Source: Mobula hypostoma (lineage: Eukaryota). Taken from it: a stretch of DNA of 64,000 nt. Position numbers and translations under genes: made by a program. The notes under the pieces are model-generated. The model saw nothing but the letters and a program-made list of their open reading frames with translations, ran no database searches and was not told where the DNA came from. The DNA lies in the NCBI RefSeq assembly GCF_963921235.1, contig NC_086108.1, positions 28,460,001 to 28,524,000 on the forward strand, in the 5' to 3' direction. This document shows, piece after piece, positions 9,768 through 64,000 of the stretch; the stretch's first letter is position 1; each line of letters begins with the position of its first letter.

Positions 9768-11855
9768 CGCAGACACGAGGAAATCCGCAGATGCTGGAAA
9801 TTCAAGCAACACACACAAAATGCTGGTGAACGCAGCAGGCCAGGCAGCATCTCTAGGAAGAGGTACAGTCGACGTTTCGGGCCGGGACCCTTCGTCAGGA
9901 CTAACTGAAAGAAGAGCTAGAAAGAGATTTGAAAGTGGGAGGGGGAGGGGGAGATCCGAAATTATAGGAGAAATCAGGAGGGGAGGATGAATCTAAGAGC
10001 TGGAAAGTTGATTGACAAAAGGGATACGAGGCTGGAGAAGGGAGAGGATCATGGGACAGGAAGCCTGCGGAGAAAGAGAAGCGGGGAGTGGACCTCGGAG
10101 GGTGGAGAACGGGCAAGGAGTAAGTGAGAGGGACAGAGGGAGAAAAAAAGAGAGAGAGAAAAGAAAGGCAGAAAAAAATAAAAATCATATTAAAAAATAT
10201 ATTAAATAAATAAATAAGGGATGGGATGTGAAGGGGAGGAGGGGCATTAACGGAAGTTAGAGAAGTCAATATTCATGCCATCAGGTTGGAGGCTACCCAG
10301 ACGGCATACAAGGTGTTGTTCCTTCAAACCTGAGTGTGGCTTCATCTTTACAGTAGAGGAGGCCGTGGATAGACACATCAAAATGGGAATGGGACGTGGA
10401 ATTAAAATGTGTGGCCACTGGGAGATCTGGTGGACAGAGCGTGGGTGTTCAGCGAAAAGGTCTCACAGCCTGCGTCAGGTCTCGTGAATATATAGAAGGC
10501 CGCACCAGGAGAACCGGATGCAGTATATCACACCAGTCAACTCACAGGTGAAGTGTCGCCTCACCTGGAAGGACTGTCTGGGGCCCTGAATGGTGGTAAG
10601 GGAGGAAGTGTGAGGGCATGTGTAGCACTTGTTCCGCTTACAAGGATAAGTGCTGGGAGGGAGACCGGTGGGAAGAGAGGTGAGGTGGGAACAAATGGAC
10701 AAGGGAGTCGTGTAGGGAGCGATCCCTGCAGAAAGCAGAGAGGGGAGGGAGGGAAAGATGTGCTTAGTGGTGGGATCCCGTTGGATGTGGCGGAAGTTAT
10801 GGAGAATTATATGTTGGACCCAGAGACTGGTGGGGTGGTAGGTTAGGACAAGGGGAACCCTATTCCTAGTGGGGTGGTGGGAGGATGGAGTGAGAGCAGA
10901 TATGTGTGAAATGGGAGAGATGCATTTGAGAGCAGAGTTGATGGTGGAGGAAGGAAAGCCACTTTCTTTAAAAAAGGAGGACATCTCCTTTGTCCTAGAA
11001 TGAAAAGCCTCATCCTGAGAGCAGATGCGGCGGAGACGGAGGAATTGCGAGAAGGGGATGGCATTTTTGCAAGAGGTGGGGTGGGAAGAGGAATAGTACA
11101 GGTAGCTGTGAGAGTCCATAGGTATATAGTAGACATCTGTAGGTAAGCTGCCTCCAGAGATCGAGACAAAAAAATCAAGAAAGGGGAGGGAGGTGTCGGA
11201 AATGGACCAGGTAAACTTGAGGGCAGGGTGAAAGTTGGAGGGAAAGTTAATGAAGTCAGCAAGCTCAGCATGTGTGCAGTCGTCAATGTAGCAAAGGAAA
11301 AGAGAGGGACAGATACCAGTATAGGCTTGAAAAGCCACAAAGCCAACGAAAAGGCAGACATAGCTGGGACCCATACGGGTGCCCATGGCTACATCTTTAG
11401 TTTGGAGGAAGTGGGAGGAGCCAAAGGAGAAATTGTTAAGAGTAAGGACTAATTCCACTAGATGGAGGAGAATGGTGGTAGAGGGGAACAGGTTAGGTCT
11501 GGAATCCAAAAAGAAATGGAGAGCTTTGAGACCTTCCTGATGGGAGATGAAAGTATATAGGGACTGAACATCCATGGTGAAATTAAAGCAGTGGGGGCCA
11601 GGGAACTTAAAATCATTAAAAAGATTCAGAGCGTGAGAAGTGTCACGAATATAGGTAAGAGGGGATTGAACAAGCGGGGGGGGGGGATAAAACAGTGTCA
11701 AGGTATGCAGAAATAAGTTCGGTGGGGCAGGGGCAAGCTGAGGCAATGGGTCTACCTGGACAGGCAGGTTTGTGGATCTTGGGTAGGAGGTAGAAACAGG
11801 AAGTGCAGGGGTGTGGGAACTATAAGGTTGGTAGCAGTGGATGGGAGATCCCCAG
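9768..11855 (-). mobile_element. Penelope-like element (Neptune type), 5'-truncated: RT + Cys linker + GIY-YIG endonuclease + 3' tail
   Basis: ORF 10475-11983 has FTMDVQSLYT, AMGTRMGPSY, YIDD, SSSHPTSCKNAIPFSQFLRLRRICS, CKRNKCYTC and FTCELTGVIYCIRFSWCGLLYIHET. Short stretches of the conceptual protein appear frameshifted. Confidence 0.93.
9866..9903 (-). ncRNA. Minimal type I hammerhead ribozyme motif in Penelope tail
   Basis: Minus strand TAGTC-CTGACGA-A-GGG-TCCCGG-CCC-GAAAC-GTC-GACTG: intact core, stem I, stem II and a GUC cleavage triplet. Confidence 0.8.
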
Positions 11856-12339
11856 TATGGATAAGGTCTTTTATGTGGTACTTTATTGATGCCTTCTGGA
11901 AATCCAAGAACACAATATCCACCAGTTCCCTTCTTTGATTGTATAGCATGTCCTAAAGAATTTATGAAGATATTATACACCACAACTTGGAACTCCCAGT
12001 GTCCTCTTTTTAGACCCTGCCTTGTATAAAGTAGATAACTGTCTCAAAGCCGACAATTCAATTCCTCCCATGACTGCTGGTTATCAAATGCATTTCTTCC
12101 ATCGTTCTCAATTTGAGCCTGTCTCCTGCTCATCATATCTTTGGTTGATCCATGGCTCACCTTTAATGGTCTTCTGATTACTAGGTTTGTTGCTGAAACT
12201 GAGAAATTGGGGAATGTAAAATAAAAATGAGACCTTGTAGCTCCAGGGGCTTGTAACTAGGAGAAGAATGTAGATAATCTCCTAACTTCTTCAGCCCTTT
12301 ACCATTTCCACCTTTCATCTCCTTTCTTCTTATATCATT

Positions 12340-14079: not shown

Positions 14080-15110
14080 CGCAAACACGAGGAAATCTGC
14101 AGATGCTGGAATTTCAATAAACACACATAAAAGTTGCTGGTAAACGCTGCAGGCCAGGCAGCATCTCTAGGAAGAGGTACAGTCGACGTTTCAGGCTGAG
14201 ACGTTTCGTCAGGACTAACTGAAAGAAGAGCTAGTAAGAGATTTGAAAGTGGGAGGGGGGGGGATCTCGCTACTAAACACATCTTTCCCTCCCCCCCTCT
14301 CCCTGCTTTCTGCAGGGATCGCTCCCTACACAACTCCCTTGTCCATTCGTCCCCCCCAGCCCTCCCCATCGATCTCCCTCCTGGCACTTACCCTTGTAAG
14401 CGGAACAAGTGCTACACATGCCCTTACACTTCCTCCCTTACCACCATTCAGGGCCCCAGTCAGTCCTTCCAGGTGAGGCGACACTTCACCTGTGAGTCAG
14501 CTGGGGTGATATACTGTGTCCGGTGCTCCCGATGCGGCCTTCTATATATTGACGAGACCCGACGCAGACTGGGAGATTGTTTCGCTGAACACCTACGCTC
14601 TGTCCACCAGAGAAAGCAGGATCTCCCAGTGGCCACACATTTTAATTCCACATCCCATTCCCATTCTGATATGTCTATGCACGGCCTCCTCTACTATAAA
14701 GATGAAGCCACACTCAGGTTGGAGGAACAACATCTTATATTCCATCTGGGTAGCCTCCAACCTGATGGCATGAACATTGACTTGTCAAACTTCCGCTAAT
14801 GCCCCACCTCCCCCTCGTACCCCATCCATTATTTATTTTATATATATATATATATATATTCTTTTTCTCTCTCTCCTTTTTCTCCTCTGTCCCTCTCTAT
14901 CCCTCTCTCTATACTCCTTGCCCATCCTCTGGGCTTCACCCCTCCCTCTTTCTTTTTCCCTAGGCTTCCTGTCCCATGATCCTCTCATATCCCTTTTGCC
15001 AATCAACTGTCCAGCTCTTGGCTCCATCCCTCCCCCTCCTGTCTTCTCCTATCATTTTGGATCTCCCCCTCCCCCTCCCACTTTCAAATCCCTTACTAGC
15101 TCTTCTTTCA
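14080..15110 (+). mobile_element. Penelope-like element with inverted terminal segment (minus-strand tail 14080-14263, plus-strand GIY-YIG and 3' UTR 14264-15110)
   Basis: ORF 14473-14799 reads as a complete GIY-YIG domain (VIYCVRCSRCGLLYIDET..R..EH..E..N). Hammerhead at 14180-14217 (minus) has an intact core but disrupted stem II. Confidence 0.9.
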
Positions 15111-15544
15111 CTTACATTCTTTTTGTTTCCATTATCAGGAGCATTCCGAATCCTTCATGGAACTGTGATCAACTCCTTCTGTTGGCCACAAGGAAACAAG
15201 TGTACTTTCTTAAAAGTTACAACACAGTGTTATGGAAATTCCAGGTCAAGATTGCTCTTCTGTATCATTCTCATTTCTGTGCAACGTCAGCTATGAGGTA
15301 GAGAGAGGATAACTCGGATGTAAGCTGCAAAGATATCTATTGCTATTCATTTATTAACTGTTGCTAATAAAGTATAATTTCATATTGAAAGAGGTCAAGT
15401 AGTTGAATTCCAGAAAAGCTACCTTTATTGAGTAGAGGAAGCTACAACACTGTATCTGTTAGTTACTACATAACAAAATCCCTTGCTCATTCATGATCTT
15501 ACTACATATTGGGTTATTCACCAAAAATATTCTCATTAGGATAT

Positions 15545-20370: not shown

Positions 20371-20632
20371 TATTTTAAACCACTTGCCACTCCTGTATTA
20401 ATCTACTCTACAAGGACGTCTTCTTGCCAAAAATAAACTGCAAGAAGAATGCAGCAGGTCGAACTATGTCTGAGGTGGAAAAGTCCTCCACAGATGTTGT
20501 TATACCCATTAGGATCGTCCAGCTGTTTTTCTGCTCCAGATTACAACATCCTCAGTTGCATCATGTTTCCGCTGACTTCTTCCTGGTGTGGTTTCCTCTT
20601 GCTTCAAAATAGCTCCAATCCCTTAATCAACC

Positions 20633-20842
20633 CACATCAAAGTTGCTGGAGAACGCAGCAGGCCAAGCAGCATCTCTAGGAAGAGGTACAGTCGACGTTT
20701 CGGGCTGAGACCCTTCGGCAGGACTAACTGAAAGAAGAGCTAGTAAGAGATTTGAAAGTGGGAGGGGCGAAACATCGACTGTACCTCTTCCTATAGATGC
20801 TGCCTGACCTGCTGTGTTCCACCAGCATTTTGTGTGTGTTGC
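20633..20842. mobile_element. Penelope tail foldback (minus arm 20633-20767, plus arm ~20768-20842)
   Basis: Two inverted tail copies; hammerhead at 20689-20726 has a core mutation (CTGCCGA). Confidence 0.85.
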
Positions 20843-21599
20843 TTGGGAAGATAATGTTTCTTTTCAGTTAAGCAAATTGTTACTGTTGGAAACGCTTTGC
20901 CTAATAAGATTTTACTGTACAAGTAGAATTATTAGCAACTTCTAAATATGCATTGAGCAAATTTGTACAACTATGAGAAAAGTGTGGAGTAAAGGAAGAA
21001 CTTTTTAGCCTGCTAGCACAGGCATAAAATGCCAAGTGAACTCTTTCTCTGGTATATGGCTCTGTTGAAAGGATTCTTATCTCCCTGCAATATATCAACA
21101 ATTATTTTAATATATATTACATGTAATTCTGAAGGTATGTTGGAGACCAAGAAAGAACTTTGATAACATGTGGTGCTCTGAAATACTTTTTCTTGAATTA
21201 CAATTTCTCCAAGAGAACTCATCTTCATTTATTACTTTTAGAGTCATTATTTGGACAGCTAAAATTTTCTTAGATGAGAGTTAAGTGATTTGTAAATTAC
21301 CTAGTTAAATGGAAAAGCAATAACAGATTGTACATTTTAAGTGGCAATTTAAATTCCAAATTTCTGGTTATAATTTCCCATCCGAGCTAAAATTTATAGC
21401 AATTTAAAATTAATCTAAAATTGCTCAGTTCAGCTATACTTAAATCCAGAGGACATTGAAAGCTGTTTATGCTTTGCAGCTTGTATTAAGGGGCTCTCCC
21501 ATCCCAAAGATGCTAATATTGGTTTTATTGGGAACAAATTGCTAACTGGAGGATATTAATAGTATGTGATAATTTATAATTATATTGTATTCCCATTCC

Positions 21600-22040: not shown

Positions 22041-22146
22041 GCAAACAACAGTAATTCTGCAGATGCTGGAAATTCAAGCAACACACATCAAAGTTGCTGG
22101 TGAACGCAGCAGGCCAGGCAGCATCTCTAGGAAGAGGTACAGTCAA
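22041..22146 (-). mobile_element. Penelope 3' tail fragment
   Basis: Near identical to 49337-49437; truncated at the edge of the hammerhead. Confidence 0.85.
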
Positions 22147-22149
22147 CAC

Positions 22150-25768: not shown

Positions 25769-25923
25769 TCAGCCTTTAGATGAAACATACTGTCGCAACA
25801 TTTGGGAGATGTCTTTGGAGTCAGTCACCTCTTCAGGCAGGCAACCTTCCCCATCCTGAATCGTAGGATCCGCACCAGAATTCAGTAATAACTCTACAAT
25901 ATCAGCAAATTCACAGGCAGAAG
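25769..25923 (-). CDS. ACBD6: Acyl-CoA-binding domain-containing protein 6, terminal coding exon (end of ankyrin repeats)
   Basis: Acceptor tctttgtctctttgcag; phase 1; encodes (A)SACEFADIVELLLNSGADPTIQDGEGCLPEEVTDSKDISQMLRQYVSSKG*, which I recognise as the ACBD6 C-terminus; joins in frame to exon 57684-57714. Confidence 0.93.
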
Positions 25924-35192: not shown

Positions 35193-35791
35193 TATGGGGG
35201 GTGATTTATAAGTTTGCGGCCTAAGGTAGGAGGAGTCAATTCTAGCACATTTATTTTTCCTACATTTACACACTTAGTCTAGCAGCCGTGGAGCATACAG
35301 ATCCCTTTTTGTAGAAGTCGGCAGCTTGGACCTCCAGAAGTGGTCCACAGCGGGGGTGATTGATAAGTTCGTGGCCTAAGGTAGAAGGAGATGGGTTATT
35401 AACTTCAAACTTTCTGCATTTTCACTAAAAAAGTTGAACTGCACGTGCATGTAACGAGAGCTGTATAACTCATCACCTTCTACCTTAGGCCACAAACTTA
35501 TCAATCACCTCTGCTGTGGACCACCTGGAGGTCCACGACACTCTCGTGACATGTATGTGCAGTTCAACTTTTTGAGTGATTATGCAGAAAGTTTGAAGTT
35601 AATAATTGATCTCCTTCTACCCCAGGCCACGAACTTATCAATCAGCCCTGCTGTGGACCACTTCTACAAAGAAGGGATCCGTATGCTCCACGACCGCTGG
35701 ACTAAGTGTGTACATGCAGGAGGGGACTATGTTGAAAAATAAATGTGCAAGGTTTTCTAAAATTGACTCCTTAGGCCACGAACTTGTCAAT
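35193..35791. mobile_element. Mariner-derived foldback MITE with five TIR copies
   Basis: TIR ggggtgattgataagttcgtggcctaaggtagaaggag forward at ~35197 and ~35353, reverse at ~35475-35510, ~35610-35648 and ~35761-35791; mariner transposase C-terminus FYKEGIRMLHDRWTKCVHAGGDYVEK* ends at 35742. Confidence 0.85.
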
Positions 35792-48400: not shown

Positions 48401-49432
48401 GTGCATGTTTTTAAATTCTCACTACAACTGTTCCACAGATTCACCCCCTGACTGAAATACAATGACTTTTTACATTTGTTCTTATTGCTTGTTTTTGAAA
48501 TATACATGTTCCTCTCAAATCATGTTGACTTTCTCTCATTTTAAACAACCTTCGGATACTTTGTGGTAGCTGTCCATCTTTTATTTTATACATAATTTGT
48601 ATTATTTTAAAATCTACAAAATCTCCGAATTTTGAAGTGCTTACTTGAATAAATAGTGGATTGGTTGGCTCATAATAACTTGTCTTATTTACAATTCGTA
48701 TGACTTTCTCTTGGAGTAGAACAATTGAGTTTGTATTTGTTTTGTATGTATTTCCCCATACCTCTGCACAGCAAGTCATGTATGGGACTATAAGTGAACA
48801 GTATAATGTATACAAAGGTTCCTGATTTAAGAAATCTTGCACTTTGTACAGTATTGCAATAGATTTTCACATTTTTGCTTTGACATAATTTATATGTGGT
48901 TTCCAGCTTATTTTATTATCTATTATCACTCCTAAAAATTTTGTTTCAAATACCTTATCAATTTCAACATAATTTATTCTAAGTTTACTGTATGAGTTTG
49001 GTACACGGTTTCCAAATATTATGAATTTAGTTTTACTTAGATTTAGTGATAATTTGTTAGTGTCAAACCATTTCTTTATAATTTTTAGTTCTTTCTCCGC
49101 TGTATCCAAAAGTTGTTTCAGATGTTCCCCACTACAAAATATAGTTATCATCAGCAAATAATATACATTTTAATGTCTGAGAGACCGTACACATATCGTT
49201 TATATACAAAACGAACAGCAATGGACCAAGCACTGAACCTTGTGGAACCCCACAAGTTACCCTCAAAAGTTTTGAATTCGAGTTGTTTATATGTACATAC
49301 TGATACCTGTCTTCCAAATAACTACTTAACCAGTCAAACAACAGGAATTCTGCAGATGCTGGAAATTCAAGCAACACACATCAAAGTTGCTGGTGAACGC
49401 AGCAGGCCAAGCAGCATCTATAGGAAGAGGCG

Positions 49433-49470
49433 CAGTCGACGTTTCAGGCCGAGACCCTTCGTCAGGACTA
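49433..49470 (-). ncRNA. Minimal hammerhead motif (sense to ACBD6 pre-mRNA)
   Basis: TAGTC-CTGACGA-AGG-GTCTCGG-CCT-GAAAC-GTC-GACTG. Confidence 0.75.
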
Positions 49471-49499
49471 ACGGAAGGAGAGTTCACTCTTCCTTCAGT

Positions 49500-49537
49500 T
49501 AGTCCTGATGAAGGGTCTCGGCCTGAAACGTCGACTG
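49500..49537 (+). ncRNA. Minimal hammerhead motif
   Basis: TAGTC-CTGATGA-AGG-GTCTCGG-CCT-GAAAC-GTC-GACTG. Confidence 0.75.
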
Positions 49538-51108
49538 CGCCTCTTCCTATAGATGCTGCTTGGCCTGCTGCGTTCACCAGCAACTTTGATGTGTGTTACT
49601 TAACCAGTCATGTGCCACCCCTCTAATACCATATCTTTCTAATTTGTTAATAATAATTTATGGTCAATGGTGTCAAATGCTTTTTTTAGATCAAGGAATA
49701 TTCCCACTGTGTATTCATTTCTTTCTATAGCAGTTAATATTTCCTCTACAAAATCTATGTATTGTAGTGGTTCTGTTTTTTCTGAAACCATATTGCTGTT
49801 CACAGAGTATATTATGTTTTGTTATGAAATCATCTAACCTTCTTACAAATACTAATACGTTTGTAATTAAATACATATCATATCCATTCCAATCTGTTGC
49901 TTTCTTGCTCTTTGATTTATATACTATATCAATTATTTCTTTTTCCTCAGTTGCTCTAATAAACATAGTGTAAGTATTTCTATTGATAATATTACTATTT
50001 ACTCCATCTTTATTGCTGGGTTCAATAATTGATTTAGTTAACTTTGGATCATTTTTCTTAATAAATAAATGAACAAGTGTAATGCTTCTTGTGTTATTTA
50101 TTTAATTGGGTTCTCTTTATCTAGTTTTAGGATTAATGTGAAGATCTGATCACATTTTAGGTTATATTTACGCAGAAATAGAGAAAATTCTACAGAGTTC
50201 ATAAACTTTCTAGCACCACTATACTTGATATAATATATGATACTTAATATATGACACTTCAAATATTTTATATTTTAATTTTTCCTAGCATAACTAATTT
50301 CTAACAGTTCACTGCTTGTAAATGTTTTTTAACATTCAAAGTCTTCATGGGTGATAAGGCTAGAAGTGCAGTTTAATTGCCTCTCAAAGCAATTTTGTAG
50401 GAGAGTACTATTTGCATAAATATAATCTGAAAAGCTAGTTTTTAAAACAAAAATTTCCAAGACATCTGTGTTTTGATTCCTTTTCACTTGTTATTATCAC
50501 CTAGCTGCACCCAAGCAGGCAGTTGTGCATGCTGCCTCTCCAAGTGAACAACCCAGATCCAGAGACCCGATGTTGTTTGCATGGACTTTGCATGTTCTCT
50601 CTGTGATTGCATAAGTACATGCAGAGAAAATGTACAGTTGAGTTTTAGGATAGCAATGGAGGGGCGAGTGTTGATGTTTTTATGTTGGTATTTTCTTGTA
50701 TGCCTATGGGGACAATAGGCATACAAGAAAATTTAATAGAAAGTTTGGAGCTCTAAGAGTCGGCAGTCACTTGATGGATCAAATAGCATCCTTCTATGTT
50801 GTAAGGAAACATGGAAACAATGGTTTTAAGATTTATTTCTGAAACTTCCCCAAGTCAATTGAAATGTACTAACATGTGTAAGATGTTTGCTACGGTCCAC
50901 CTAAGTCTCAACTTGCATAACACATGTTCTGTGGGGAATAAGTCATTTTCTAACTATAGGTATGTGTGATGGGGTTCTGCAAGCATAGGTAGACAACCTA
51001 GAAATGTTTCATAGGCAGCAAGCATCCGGTAGAAAGTGTAATGTTTGTTCACAGCTTTAGATAATAATGATGAATACACAATTGCTATTAATTAGAATTA
51101 AGTCATTA

Positions 51109-53284
51109 CATAGAAACATAGAAACATAGAAAATAGGTGCAGGAGTAGGCCATTCGGCCCTTCGAGCCTGCACCGCCATTTATTATGATCATGGCTGATC
51201 ATCCAACTCAGAACCCAGCCTTCCCTCCATACCCCCTGACCCCTGTAGCCACAAGGGCCATATCTAACTTCCTTTTAAACATAGCTAATGAACTGGCCTC
51301 AACAGTTTGCTGTGGCAGAGAATTCCACAGATTCACCACTCTCTGTGTGAAGAAGTTTTTCCTAACCTCGGTCCTAAAAGGCTTCCCCTCTATCCTCAAA
51401 CTGTGACCCCTCGTTCTAGACCTCCCCAACATCGGGAACAATCTTCCTGCATCTAGCCTGTCCAATCCCTTTAGGATCTTATACGTTTCAATCAGATCCC
51501 CCCTCAATCTTCTAAATTCCAACGAGTACAAGCCCAGTTCATCCAGTCTTTCTTCATATGAAAGACCTGCCATCCCAGGAATCAATCTGGTGAACCTTCT
51601 TTGTACTCCCTCTATGGCAAAGATGTCTTTCCTCAGATTAGGGGACCAAAACTGCACACAATACTCCAGGTGTGGTCTCACCAAGGCCTTGTACAACTGC
51701 AGTAGTACCTCCCTGCTCCTGTACTCGAATCCTCTCGCTATAAATGCCAGCATACCGTTCGCCTTTTTCACCGCCTGCTGTACCTGCATGCCCACTTTCA
51801 ATGACTGGTGTATAATGACACCCAGGTCTCGTTGCACCTCCCCTTTTCCTAATCGGCCACCATTCAGATAATAATCTGTTTTCCTATTTTTGCCACCAAA
51901 GTGGATAACTTCACATTTATCCACATTAAATTGCATCTGCCATGAGTTTGCCCACTCACCCAACCTATCCAAGTCACCCTGCATCCTCTTAGCATCCTCC
52001 TCACTGCTAACACTGCCACCCAGCTTCGTGTCATCCGCAAACTTGGAGATGCTGCATTTAATTCCCTCATCCAAGTCATTAATATATATTGTAAACAACT
52101 GGGGTCCCAGCACTGAGCCTTGCGGTACCCCACTAGTCACCGCCTGCCATTCTGAAAAGGTCCCGTTTATTCCCACTCTTTGCTTCCTGTCTGCTAACCA
52201 ATTCTCCACCCACACCAATACCTTACCCCCAATACCGTGTGCTTTAAGTTTGCACACTAATCTCCTATGTGGGACCTTGTCAAAAGCCTTTTGAAAATCC
52301 AAATATACCACATCCACTGGTTCTCCCCTATCCACTCTACTAGTTACATCCTCAAAAAATTCTATGAGATTCGTCAGACATGATTTTCCTTTCACAAATC
52401 CATGCTGACTTTGTCCGATCATTTCACCGCTTTCCAAATGTGCTGTTATCACATCCTTGATAACTGACTCCAGCAGTTTCCCCACCACCGACGTTAGGCT
52501 AACCGGCCTATAATTCCCCGGTTTCTCTCTCCCTCCTTTTTTAAAAAGTGGGGTTACATTAGCCACCCTCCAATCCTCAGGAACTAGTCCAGAATCTAAC
52601 GAGTTTTGAAAAATTATCACTAATGCATCCACTATTTCTTGGGCCACTTCCTTAAGCACTCTGGGATGCAGACCATCTGGCCCTGGGGATTTATCTGCCT
52701 TCAATCCCTTCAATTTACCTAACACCACTTCCCTACTAACATGTATTTCGCTCAGTTCCTCCATCTCACTGGACCCTCTGTCCCTTACTATTTCTGGAAG
52801 ATTATTTATGTCCTCCTTAGTGAAGACAGAACCAAAGTAATTATTCAATTGGTCTGCCATGTCCTTGCTCCCCATAATCAATTCACCTGTTTCTGTTTGC
52901 AGGGGACCTACATTTGTCTTTATCAGTCTTTTCCTTTTTACATATCTATAAAAGCTTTTACAGTCCGTTTTTATGTTCTCTGCCAGTTTTCTCTCATAAT
53001 CTTTTTTCCCCTTCCTAATTAAGCCCTTTGTCCTCCTCTGCTGAACTCTGAATTTCTCCCAGTCCTCAGGTGAGCCACTTTCTCTGGCTAATTTGTATGC
53101 TACTTCTTTGGAATTGATACTATCCCTAATTTCTCTTGTCAGCCACGGGTGCACTACCTTCCTTGATTTATTCTTTTGCCAAACTGGGATGAACAATTGT
53201 TGTAGTTCATCCATGCAACCTTTAAATGCCTGCCATTGCATATCCACCGTCAATCCTTGAAGTGTCATTTGCCAGTCTATCTTA
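51109..53284 (-). mobile_element. Young 5'-truncated CR1 LINE with uninterrupted RT frame (ORF 51208-53331)
   Basis: About 690 CR1-derived codons with no stop; KSPGPDG, NYRPVSL, DFQKAFD, PQGSVLGP, FADD intact; (TTTCTATG)n tail at 51109-51133. Confidence 0.96.
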
Positions 53285-53375
53285 CTTTCTCCATATTTTA
53301 ATTCTTGGCAGTGGTTGAATGTGACAATCATAGAACTGATAGATCAGAAACAATATTTGAGATATTAATTGGCAG

Positions 53376-57683: not shown

Positions 57684-57714
57684 CATAGTGCAGTGCTGTT
57701 TGTCCTTCACTATC
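57684..57714 (-). CDS. ACBD6: ACBD6 penultimate coding exon (31 bp)
   Basis: tctcttctgattacag|GATAGTGAAGGACAAACAGCACTGCACTATG|gtaagt = DSEGQTALHY+G; ankyrin motif, in frame with the terminal exon (G+CT = Ala). Confidence 0.92.
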
Positions 57715-57827
57715 CTGTAATCAGAAGAGACAAGTCTCATTGTATATCATTTGGAAAATCCAGAAAAATAATCTAAGTCTGAAACAATTAATAAACTTCA
57801 ATAATCTGACAGACATTACATTATTGC

Positions 57828-58395
57828 AACACACATAAAAGTTGCTGGTGAACGCAGCAGGCCAGCCAGCATCCCTAGGAAGAGGTGCAGTCGACGTTTC
57901 AGGCCGAGACCCTTCGTCAGGAGTAACTGAAGGAAGAGTGAGTAAGGGATTTGAAAGTTGGAGGGGGAGGGGGAGATCCAAAATGATAGGAGAAGACAGG
58001 AGGGGGAGGGATGGAGCCAAGAGCTGGACAGGTGATAGGCAAAAGGGATACAAGTGGATCATGGGACAGGAGGTCCGGGAAGAAAGACAAGGGGGGGTGG
58101 GACCAGAGGATGGGCAAGAGGTATATTCAGAGGGACAGAGGGAGAGAAAGGACAGTGAGAGAAAGAATGTGTGTATAAAAATAAGTAACAGATGGGGTAC
58201 GAGGGGGAGGTGGGGCATTAGCGGAAGTTAGAGAAGTCGATGTTCATGCCATCAGGTTGGAGGTGACCCAGACGGAATATAAAGTGTTGTTCCTCCAATC
58301 TGAGTGTGGTTTCATCTTTACAGTAGAGGAGGCCGTGGATAGACATGTCAGAATGGAAATGGGATGTGGAATTAAAATGTGTAAAATGTTGTTGG
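57828..58395 (-). mobile_element. Penelope 3' fragment (GIY-YIG end, 3' UTR, hammerhead 57888-57925) with 14-bp TSD
   Basis: CATTACATTATTGC at 57814-57827 and 58396-58409. Confidence 0.92.
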
Positions 58396-63360: not shown

Positions 63361-63494
63361 CAACATTACAACCACTCTTTAGCTGAAACAAGCTACCTGT
63401 ATGTTACACATTCAATCCAGAACCATCTGATTAGTATGGCACTGAACAACAGTGATCAGCAAGTAACCTAGAGCAATCAGGAAGCTTAGCTTTG

Positions 63495-63895
63495 ACTTCT
63501 CAAACTTCCGCTAATGCCCCACCTCCCCCTCGTACCCCGTCCATTAATTATTTATTTATATACCCACATTCTTTTTCTCTCTCTCCTTTTCCTCCCTCTG
63601 TCCCTCTCACCATACCCCTTGCCCATCCTCTGGGCTTCCCCCCTCCCCCTTTTCTTTCTCCCTAAGCCTCCTGTCCCATGATCCTTTCACATCACTTTTG
63701 CTAACCAACTGTCCAGCTCTTGGCTCCATCCCTCCCCCTCCTCCTATAATTTCGGATCTCCCCCCCGCCTCAAAACTCTTACTAGCTCTTCTTTCAGTTA
63801 GTCCTGACGAAGGGTCTCAGCCCGAAACGTCGACTGTACCTCTTCCTAGAGATGCTGCCTGGCCTGCTGAGTTCACCAGCAACTTTTATGTGTGT
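63495..63895 (+). mobile_element. Penelope 3' UTR/tail insertion with 12-bp TSD
   Basis: AGCTTAGCTTTG at 63483-63494 and 63896-63907. Confidence 0.92.
63799..63836 (+). ncRNA. Minimal hammerhead motif, intact
   Basis: TAGTC-CTGACGA-A-GGG-TCTCAG-CCC-GAAAC-GTC-GACTG; predicted cleavage after C63831. Confidence 0.8.
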
Positions 63896-64000
63896 AGCTT
63901 AGCTTTGGATGTTTATTGGAGATTTATGACTGAATATTGAAGGACATGGAGGATAGGAAGATCACTGTTGAGATTATTAACTTGCAAGCGAATTTTGAGG

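Follow-up and report, generated by a model that had tools for sequence, protein, structure and literature searches.

The hairpin at positions 49337-49596 of the window, by which we mean the whole 64,000-nucleotide stretch of DNA analysed here, is genuine but unremarkable: it is a very short insertion of an abundant Penelope-type element. Our main reading, to which we give a probability of roughly 0.7, is that it is a single, doubly 5′-truncated insertion of a Penelope-like element (PLE), in which two head-to-head copies of the last 110-150 bases lie within a true 14-bp target-site duplication (TSD), both cut strands having likely primed their own cDNA. The locus is a new instance of a PLE insertion pattern that has been published. 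It encodes nothing, no daughters were detected, and as a dead stub in an intron it matters little in itself. The class is useful, as the origin of inverted one-tailed PLE insertions is called undefined in the available text of PMC8557442, and at least 980 short, young, TSD-bounded examples make the choice between self-priming and dual priming decidable by counting.

Anatomy of the insertion, its target and its parent

The insert is 260 bp long and bracketed by 14-bp direct repeats at 49323-49336 and 49597-49610 (plus strand), which are 100% identical. Its inverted arms pair over 111 nt at 97% identity around a 2-nt centre at 49484-49485, with three differences (a 1-nt indel, an A/C and a C/T), so the first-pass annotation was right about the perfect duplication and about arms of ~110 bp with about three differences. 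It had also described the insert as made of two Penelope tails; two head-to-head PLE 3′ ends are indeed present, but the 37-nt tail (49337-49373, minus strand) belongs to the left arm only, as alignment to the other arm and to the parent unit L134 indicates, and it stays unpaired in the hairpin. The left arm (49374-49483) is a 5′-truncated PLE 3′ end with its sense on the minus strand and 98% identity to L134, and the right arm (49484-49596) is a 5′-truncated, tail-less 3′ end with its sense on the plus strand and 97% identity, ending 37 nt short of the tail end. The predicted RNA fold of the hairpin has an energy of -235.8 kcal/mol (z -30), and none of 200 shuffles was as good.

According to the part of PMC8557442 available, an inverted 5′-truncated copy with a one-sided 30-40-bp tail is typical of PLEs and its cause is undefined; the part of PMC3846280 available describes inverted pLTRs with a tail, a TSD and junction palindromes. 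All the features of an inverted PLE insertion were found here, namely a head-to-head 5′-truncated copy, a tail at one end whose 37 nt fit the published range, and an enclosing TSD. Like the inverted-pLTR insertions of EN+ PLEs described there (Pen2a_Av and Pen2_Av, PMC3846280; Fig. 2 of PMC8557442), the stub carries a head-to-head inverted, 5′-truncated copy at its 5′ end, a 30-40-bp tail at one end only, a TSD around the whole unit and a palindromic junction. Unlike them, as far as those sources describe them, the stub arms are cut to 110-150 nt with no ORF left, and TSDs in the class, at 13-17 bp, are longer than the 8-10 bp of the rotifer examples.

The insertion was received by a decayed LINE-like reverse transcriptase fragment on the minus strand, with bounds of approximately 48441-50101 as set by ORF remnants, one of three of which gave a weak RVT_1 match (E 0.0013). 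The fragment has about 39 paralogues at 90-94% identity, and in all nine that were fetched the site is empty, with contiguous flanks overlapping by 14 bp (13 in one) and without the PLE core; the 14-mer is conserved letter for letter in six of them. As it is single in all nine, the repeat is a true TSD, and a chance repeat posing as one is ruled out by these empty paralogous sites together with 0 of 50 mismatched-flank controls. It is highly improbable that the palindrome is an assembly artefact or the result of later recombination between two separate insertions: such structures are noted to trouble assemblies in the available text of PMC8557442, but a single TSD brackets both arms, paralogues preserve the site uninterrupted, three differences separate the arms, and 46 of the 50 loci show this anatomy with TSDs. 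Nearby, at 51208-53343, the window holds a 711-codon open frame with a LINE-type reverse transcriptase, apparently little decayed.

The full-length copy L134 and a second fetched copy, L135, each contain a 1043-codon frame, with RVT_1 at codons 534-696 (E 6e-5) followed C-terminally by a GIY-YIG domain at 946-1020 (E 0.001), both below the Pfam cut-offs, and Atlas matches of the PLE coding sequence scored 0.94-0.95 to RT/HTH_animal/GIY-YIG clusters. In the translations of L134 and L135 we recognised by eye a DKG motif, a CCHH finger that places two Cys between GIY and YIG, and a CX4CxxC finger in the RT-EN linker. These motifs are defined in PMC8557442, whose available text gives CX2-5CxxC as common to Neptune and Nematis, a pattern that the linker fits. 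L134 has tandem repeats 3515 bp apart at 99.8% identity, forming pLTRs with a hammerhead, L135 has a 523-bp terminal repeat at 96%, and the tail sequence occurs at both ends of the ORF in the parent element. Judged by these sequences, the parent is an EN+ Penelope-like element with a predicted RT and C-terminal GIY-YIG in a single ORF and tandem pLTRs; it appears Neptune-like, the linker pointing to Neptune or Nematis. The tandem copies in L134 (G000:C2:157225500-157234500) are 99.8% identical over 2.1 kb, which indicates a young family.

Within the window, a longer copy of the same family lies on the minus strand at 9778-11874, with RT and GIY-YIG coding sequence and 84% identity to L134. It ends in the same tail, which ties that tail to RT- and GIY-YIG-like coding sequence, and when the genome was searched for it, 118 of 154,059 candidates were scored as matches, among them L134 and L135. 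The 22-nt core motif of the family has 65,180 exact matches in the genome. A Pfam search of four decayed PLE frames within the window gave no domain in any of them, domains being found in intact copies only.

On the minus strand, two exons with proper splice signals lie on either side of the site, at 57684-57714 and 25769-25923, the latter being a last exon with an ankyrin-like translation (Pfam Ank, E 0.003, and Atlas). The stub is thus predicted to lie within the last intron of a minus-strand ankyrin-repeat gene, whose last two exons span 25769-57714. The earlier placement in ACBD6 pre-mRNA agrees with this intron, but the name is tentative: the gene would fit ACBD6, no tool gave that name, and an ACBP family search returned four matches, none on this contig (15 candidates scored).

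A class of two-armed stubs and the priming of their arms

Facing cores 10-40 nt apart were found at at least 980 loci in this genome, a lower bound because exact matches were required. With so many loci of the same layout, and with an anatomy already published for PLEs, the idea that this was the best candidate for an undescribed element is not supported. We examined 50 loci: the present stub and, from contig C1, 49 of 50 listed there (the duplicate L014 was dropped). The set was picked by a pattern requiring both cores, and all but one member comes from a single contig. Every one of the 50 has one tailed and one short arm: on a 130-nt reference the tailed arm ends at 124-130, and the short arm ends at or before 106, and at 86-106 in 42 loci (the short-arm end of L001 was set by hand, as its alignment ran into the TSD). 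TSDs of 13-17 bp bound 46 of the 50 and none of 50 controls with mismatched flanks. At 260 bp, the median insert is exactly as long as the stub studied here, and the junctions vary among loci. An unselected sample, taken as 60 evenly spaced stretches of 10 kb, contained 34 insertions with a 3′ end; 12 of these had two arms, and five of the 12 were under 300 bp. A rough extrapolation suggests tens of thousands of two-armed insertions genome-wide.

The rule of one tail is not absolute. A second two-armed stub of the family in the window, at 20625-20845, breaks it, both arms being tail-less (no TSD was found around it), and L101 is ambiguous. The window also has a two-armed insertion at 14084-15114, in which a tailed short arm faces an arm of 850 bp whose end lies immediately before the hammerhead core, again with no TSD found, and single-armed copies of the family at 22045-22147, 57826-58382 and 63492-63900, of which the last two terminate at the inner site and show repeats resembling a TSD. 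On contig C1, L013 and L014 (G000:C1:42753211 and 42783056) are identical stubs with identical flanks 30 kb apart, that is, a local duplication or an assembly repeat.

We propose that the GIY-YIG endonuclease would nick both strands about 14 bp apart. One 3′ end would then prime reverse transcription from the RNA's tail end, and the other would prime it about 35 nt further upstream, at an internal site of the same RNA or of a sister from the same subfamily. Each cDNA would run for about 110-150 nt and end shortly beyond the hammerhead; the two ends would be joined with little or no microhomology, and repair fill-in would then give the palindrome and the TSD. These are likely steps read back from end products. 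In L1 twin priming, both target strands prime cDNA and an inversion inside one TSD results. The route proposed here would resemble it in having cDNA primed by both strands and an inversion within one TSD, but twin priming inverts non-overlapping parts of one RNA, whereas the stub arms copy the same stretch.

Arms of the same locus diverge by 2.7% against 5.8% between loci, and the 81 differences observed within loci compare with a minimum of 140 in 2000 permutations (this excludes seven of the 50 loci, whose short arms measure less than 80 nt); one diagnostic site is concordant between arms in 43 of 43 cases, against 22 expected. The low divergence within loci argues that both arms come from the same template or subfamily, a concordance that is also expected from a snap-back or from gene conversion. 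Scored against 18 upstream references with a 1-nt margin, the tail-less arm reaches further towards 5′ in 25 of the 50 loci, the tailed arm in 19, and the two are equal in six; in the unselected 600 kb the tail-less arm reaches further in seven of 11, by 297 nt at L127 (the count excludes L078, cut by the edge of its stretch). In 25 of the 50 loci, then, the arms are not nested in either direction, a result that speaks for two cDNAs primed separately rather than for self-priming, although at 49337-49596 the non-nesting amounts to only 2 nt.

Self-priming, in which one cDNA or antisense RNA of the same element would have folded back and copied itself in a one-off event, is in our judgement unlikely. 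It has been proposed for PLE inverted repeats (PMC3846280, in the part available), and the near-perfect palindrome with its 2-nt centre would suit it, as would the subfamily variants common to the two arms, which extend even to a private indel at L018. However, a copied arm must sit wholly inside its template arm, and in the 25 selected and seven unselected loci just counted it is the arm with the shorter 3′ end that reaches further 5′. The centre of the present locus matches the parent sequence of the right, tail-less arm, and the short ends are clustered at 86-106, not evenly spread. The first-pass annotation had offered a snap-back product of one integration event; of this, the single event is borne out by the unique junction, whereas the snap-back is disfavoured for the class.

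Dual priming by both cut strands has a parallel in the Anolis PLE, which in vitro cuts and extends both strands and uses two reverse transcription start sites that bound the tail (PMC11167929, in the part available). In that assay the start site was no different between the strands, so the one-tail rule is left unexplained by it. In the literature searched, mostly material outside subscription journals and supplements, we found no test of PLE arm nesting, and a search on cartilaginous-fish PLEs found no relevant paper.

Junctions and the question of a fold-back family

The junction 21-mer of the stub has one match in the 3.48-Gb genome, and its symmetrised version has none. A junction unique genome-wide means that 49337-49596 does not represent an amplified foldback family; an amplified family at this junction is rejected by both counts, a unique junction being what the first-pass annotation expected of a one-off integration by-product and not of a non-autonomous foldback family.

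Among the 50 loci, seven pairs have a junction in common. In three of them the polarity is opposite (L017/18, L019/20 and L027/28) and in two the subfamily variants differ (L023/24 and L025/26), so five pairs formed independently, and shared junctions are thereby rejected as proof of a family in five of seven pairs. The junctions of the other two pairs were each observed exactly twice genome-wide. L029/L030 (G000:C1:111302599 and 111312812) lie 10 kb apart and share a complex, partly non-templated junction, with a 13-nt non-templated joint, that is absent from the rest of the genome; their TSDs differ, and within L030 the short arm and the tailed arm carry different subfamily variants. L021/L022 (G000:C1:100181101 and 102738616) lie 2.6 Mb apart, are the only two genome copies, and have the same polarity, different TSDs and tailed arms with 1 difference in 128 nt.

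These two pairs, each alike in polarity but set in unrelated flanks with differing TSDs, are what speaks for a non-autonomous fold-back family of which the hairpin would be a member or founder, its junction re-copied intact by PLE proteins. We regard this as very unlikely, given that the stub junction occurs once, that five of the seven pairs arose independently, and that L029/L030 and L021/L022 could be products of ectopic gene conversion. The stub at 49337-49596 belongs to neither pair; both pairs could have arisen by gene conversion or because a hairpin transcript was copied again. A variant in which the stubs are low-copy, ribozyme-bearing fold-back units re-copied by Penelope proteins, first made by two-nick, two-start-site integration in place of self-priming, and in which this locus would be a daughterless founder, also seems to us quite unlikely. 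The preferred reading for the present locus is a single, dually primed insertion.

Hammerhead motifs and the hairpin RNA

Each arm carries a minimal type-I hammerhead motif, so that the complete cores reported earlier, CTGACGA and CTGATGA, were found, but within a minimal layout that lacks a helix III loop and closes helix II with G-U. On the plus strand the motif occupies 49500-49537 (pattern match 49505-49530, and dissection), with helix I at 49500-49504/49533-49537, the CTGATGA core at 49505-49511, helix II at 49513-49524, GAAA at 49525-49528 and a predicted cleavage triplet at 49530-49532, laid out as in the min-HHRs of PMC4209133. Its mirror on the minus strand, with the CTGACGA core, occupies 49433-49470 (match 49440-49465). 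Both arms have the conserved boxes and helices I and II of a min-HHR, and helix I is short with an extra base before helix II. Both arms, and likewise the parent, have G-U in place of the conserved G10.1-C11.1 closing pair; a C stands at the helix II closing position in three of five other copies in the window. An Rfam scan of the window gave no match at the gathering score, and neither one arm nor an arm dimer took on the active hammerhead in its predicted minimum free energy fold.

Like the min-HHRs of metazoan PLE pLTRs (PMC4209133), the stub motifs have CUGANGA and GAAA boxes, no helix III loop, a palindromic 15.2-16.2, an extra base before helix II, a short helix I and an opposed arrangement in pairs. 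The part of that study available describes dual min-HHRs on opposite strands about 100-700 bp apart; unlike these, the stub cores are about 40 nt apart and helix II has 4 bp closed by G-U. The Poseidon element PAc of Anolis (PMC11167929, in the part available) is similar in its hammerhead near the pLTR-ORF junction, its two 3′ end classes bounding the tail and the AC-rich antisense sequence at the inner end, and differs in that the parent here has the CX4CxxC linker of the Neptune/Nematis type; the available text leaves inverted products unexplained. Animal non-LTR retrozymes (bioRxiv 10.64898/2026.07.22.740005, in the part available) are likewise short, non-coding, hammerhead-bearing and derived from PLE pLTRs, but form families of head-to-tail tandem units, whereas the stub is head-to-head with a unique junction.

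The full hairpin is predicted at -230.7 kcal/mol against -33.7 and -27.4 for its separate halves, about 170 kcal/mol more stable, and the antisense arm is transcribed before the ribozyme on both strands, so that an order first reported for the minus strand holds there but is not peculiar to it. In the available text of PMC4209133, single minimal hammerheads showed no cleavage and dimers cleaved at a low level, and the Anolis hammerhead motif needed protein (PMC11167929, in the part available). The inactivity of single min-HHRs, the need for protein in Anolis, the G-U pair, the duplex stability and the antisense-first order together make cleavage of the host pre-mRNA by the stub unlikely. The self-cutting motifs are probably inactive, and the hammerheads would be passengers, locked in duplex in either transcript. 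Suppression of cleavage by the antisense arm, as had been suggested, is plausible for a hairpin duplex but probably unnecessary because single minimal hammerheads showed no cleavage in PMC4209133, as far as its available text goes. Should hairpin RNAs made from stubs of this kind undergo editing or dicing, the element's silencing could draw on thousands of duplexes in introns. Elsewhere in the window, at 35336-35665, lies an unrelated inverted repeat with 125-nt arms at 90% identity and an 80-nt spacer, which by its look is presumably a small DNA-transposon derivative.
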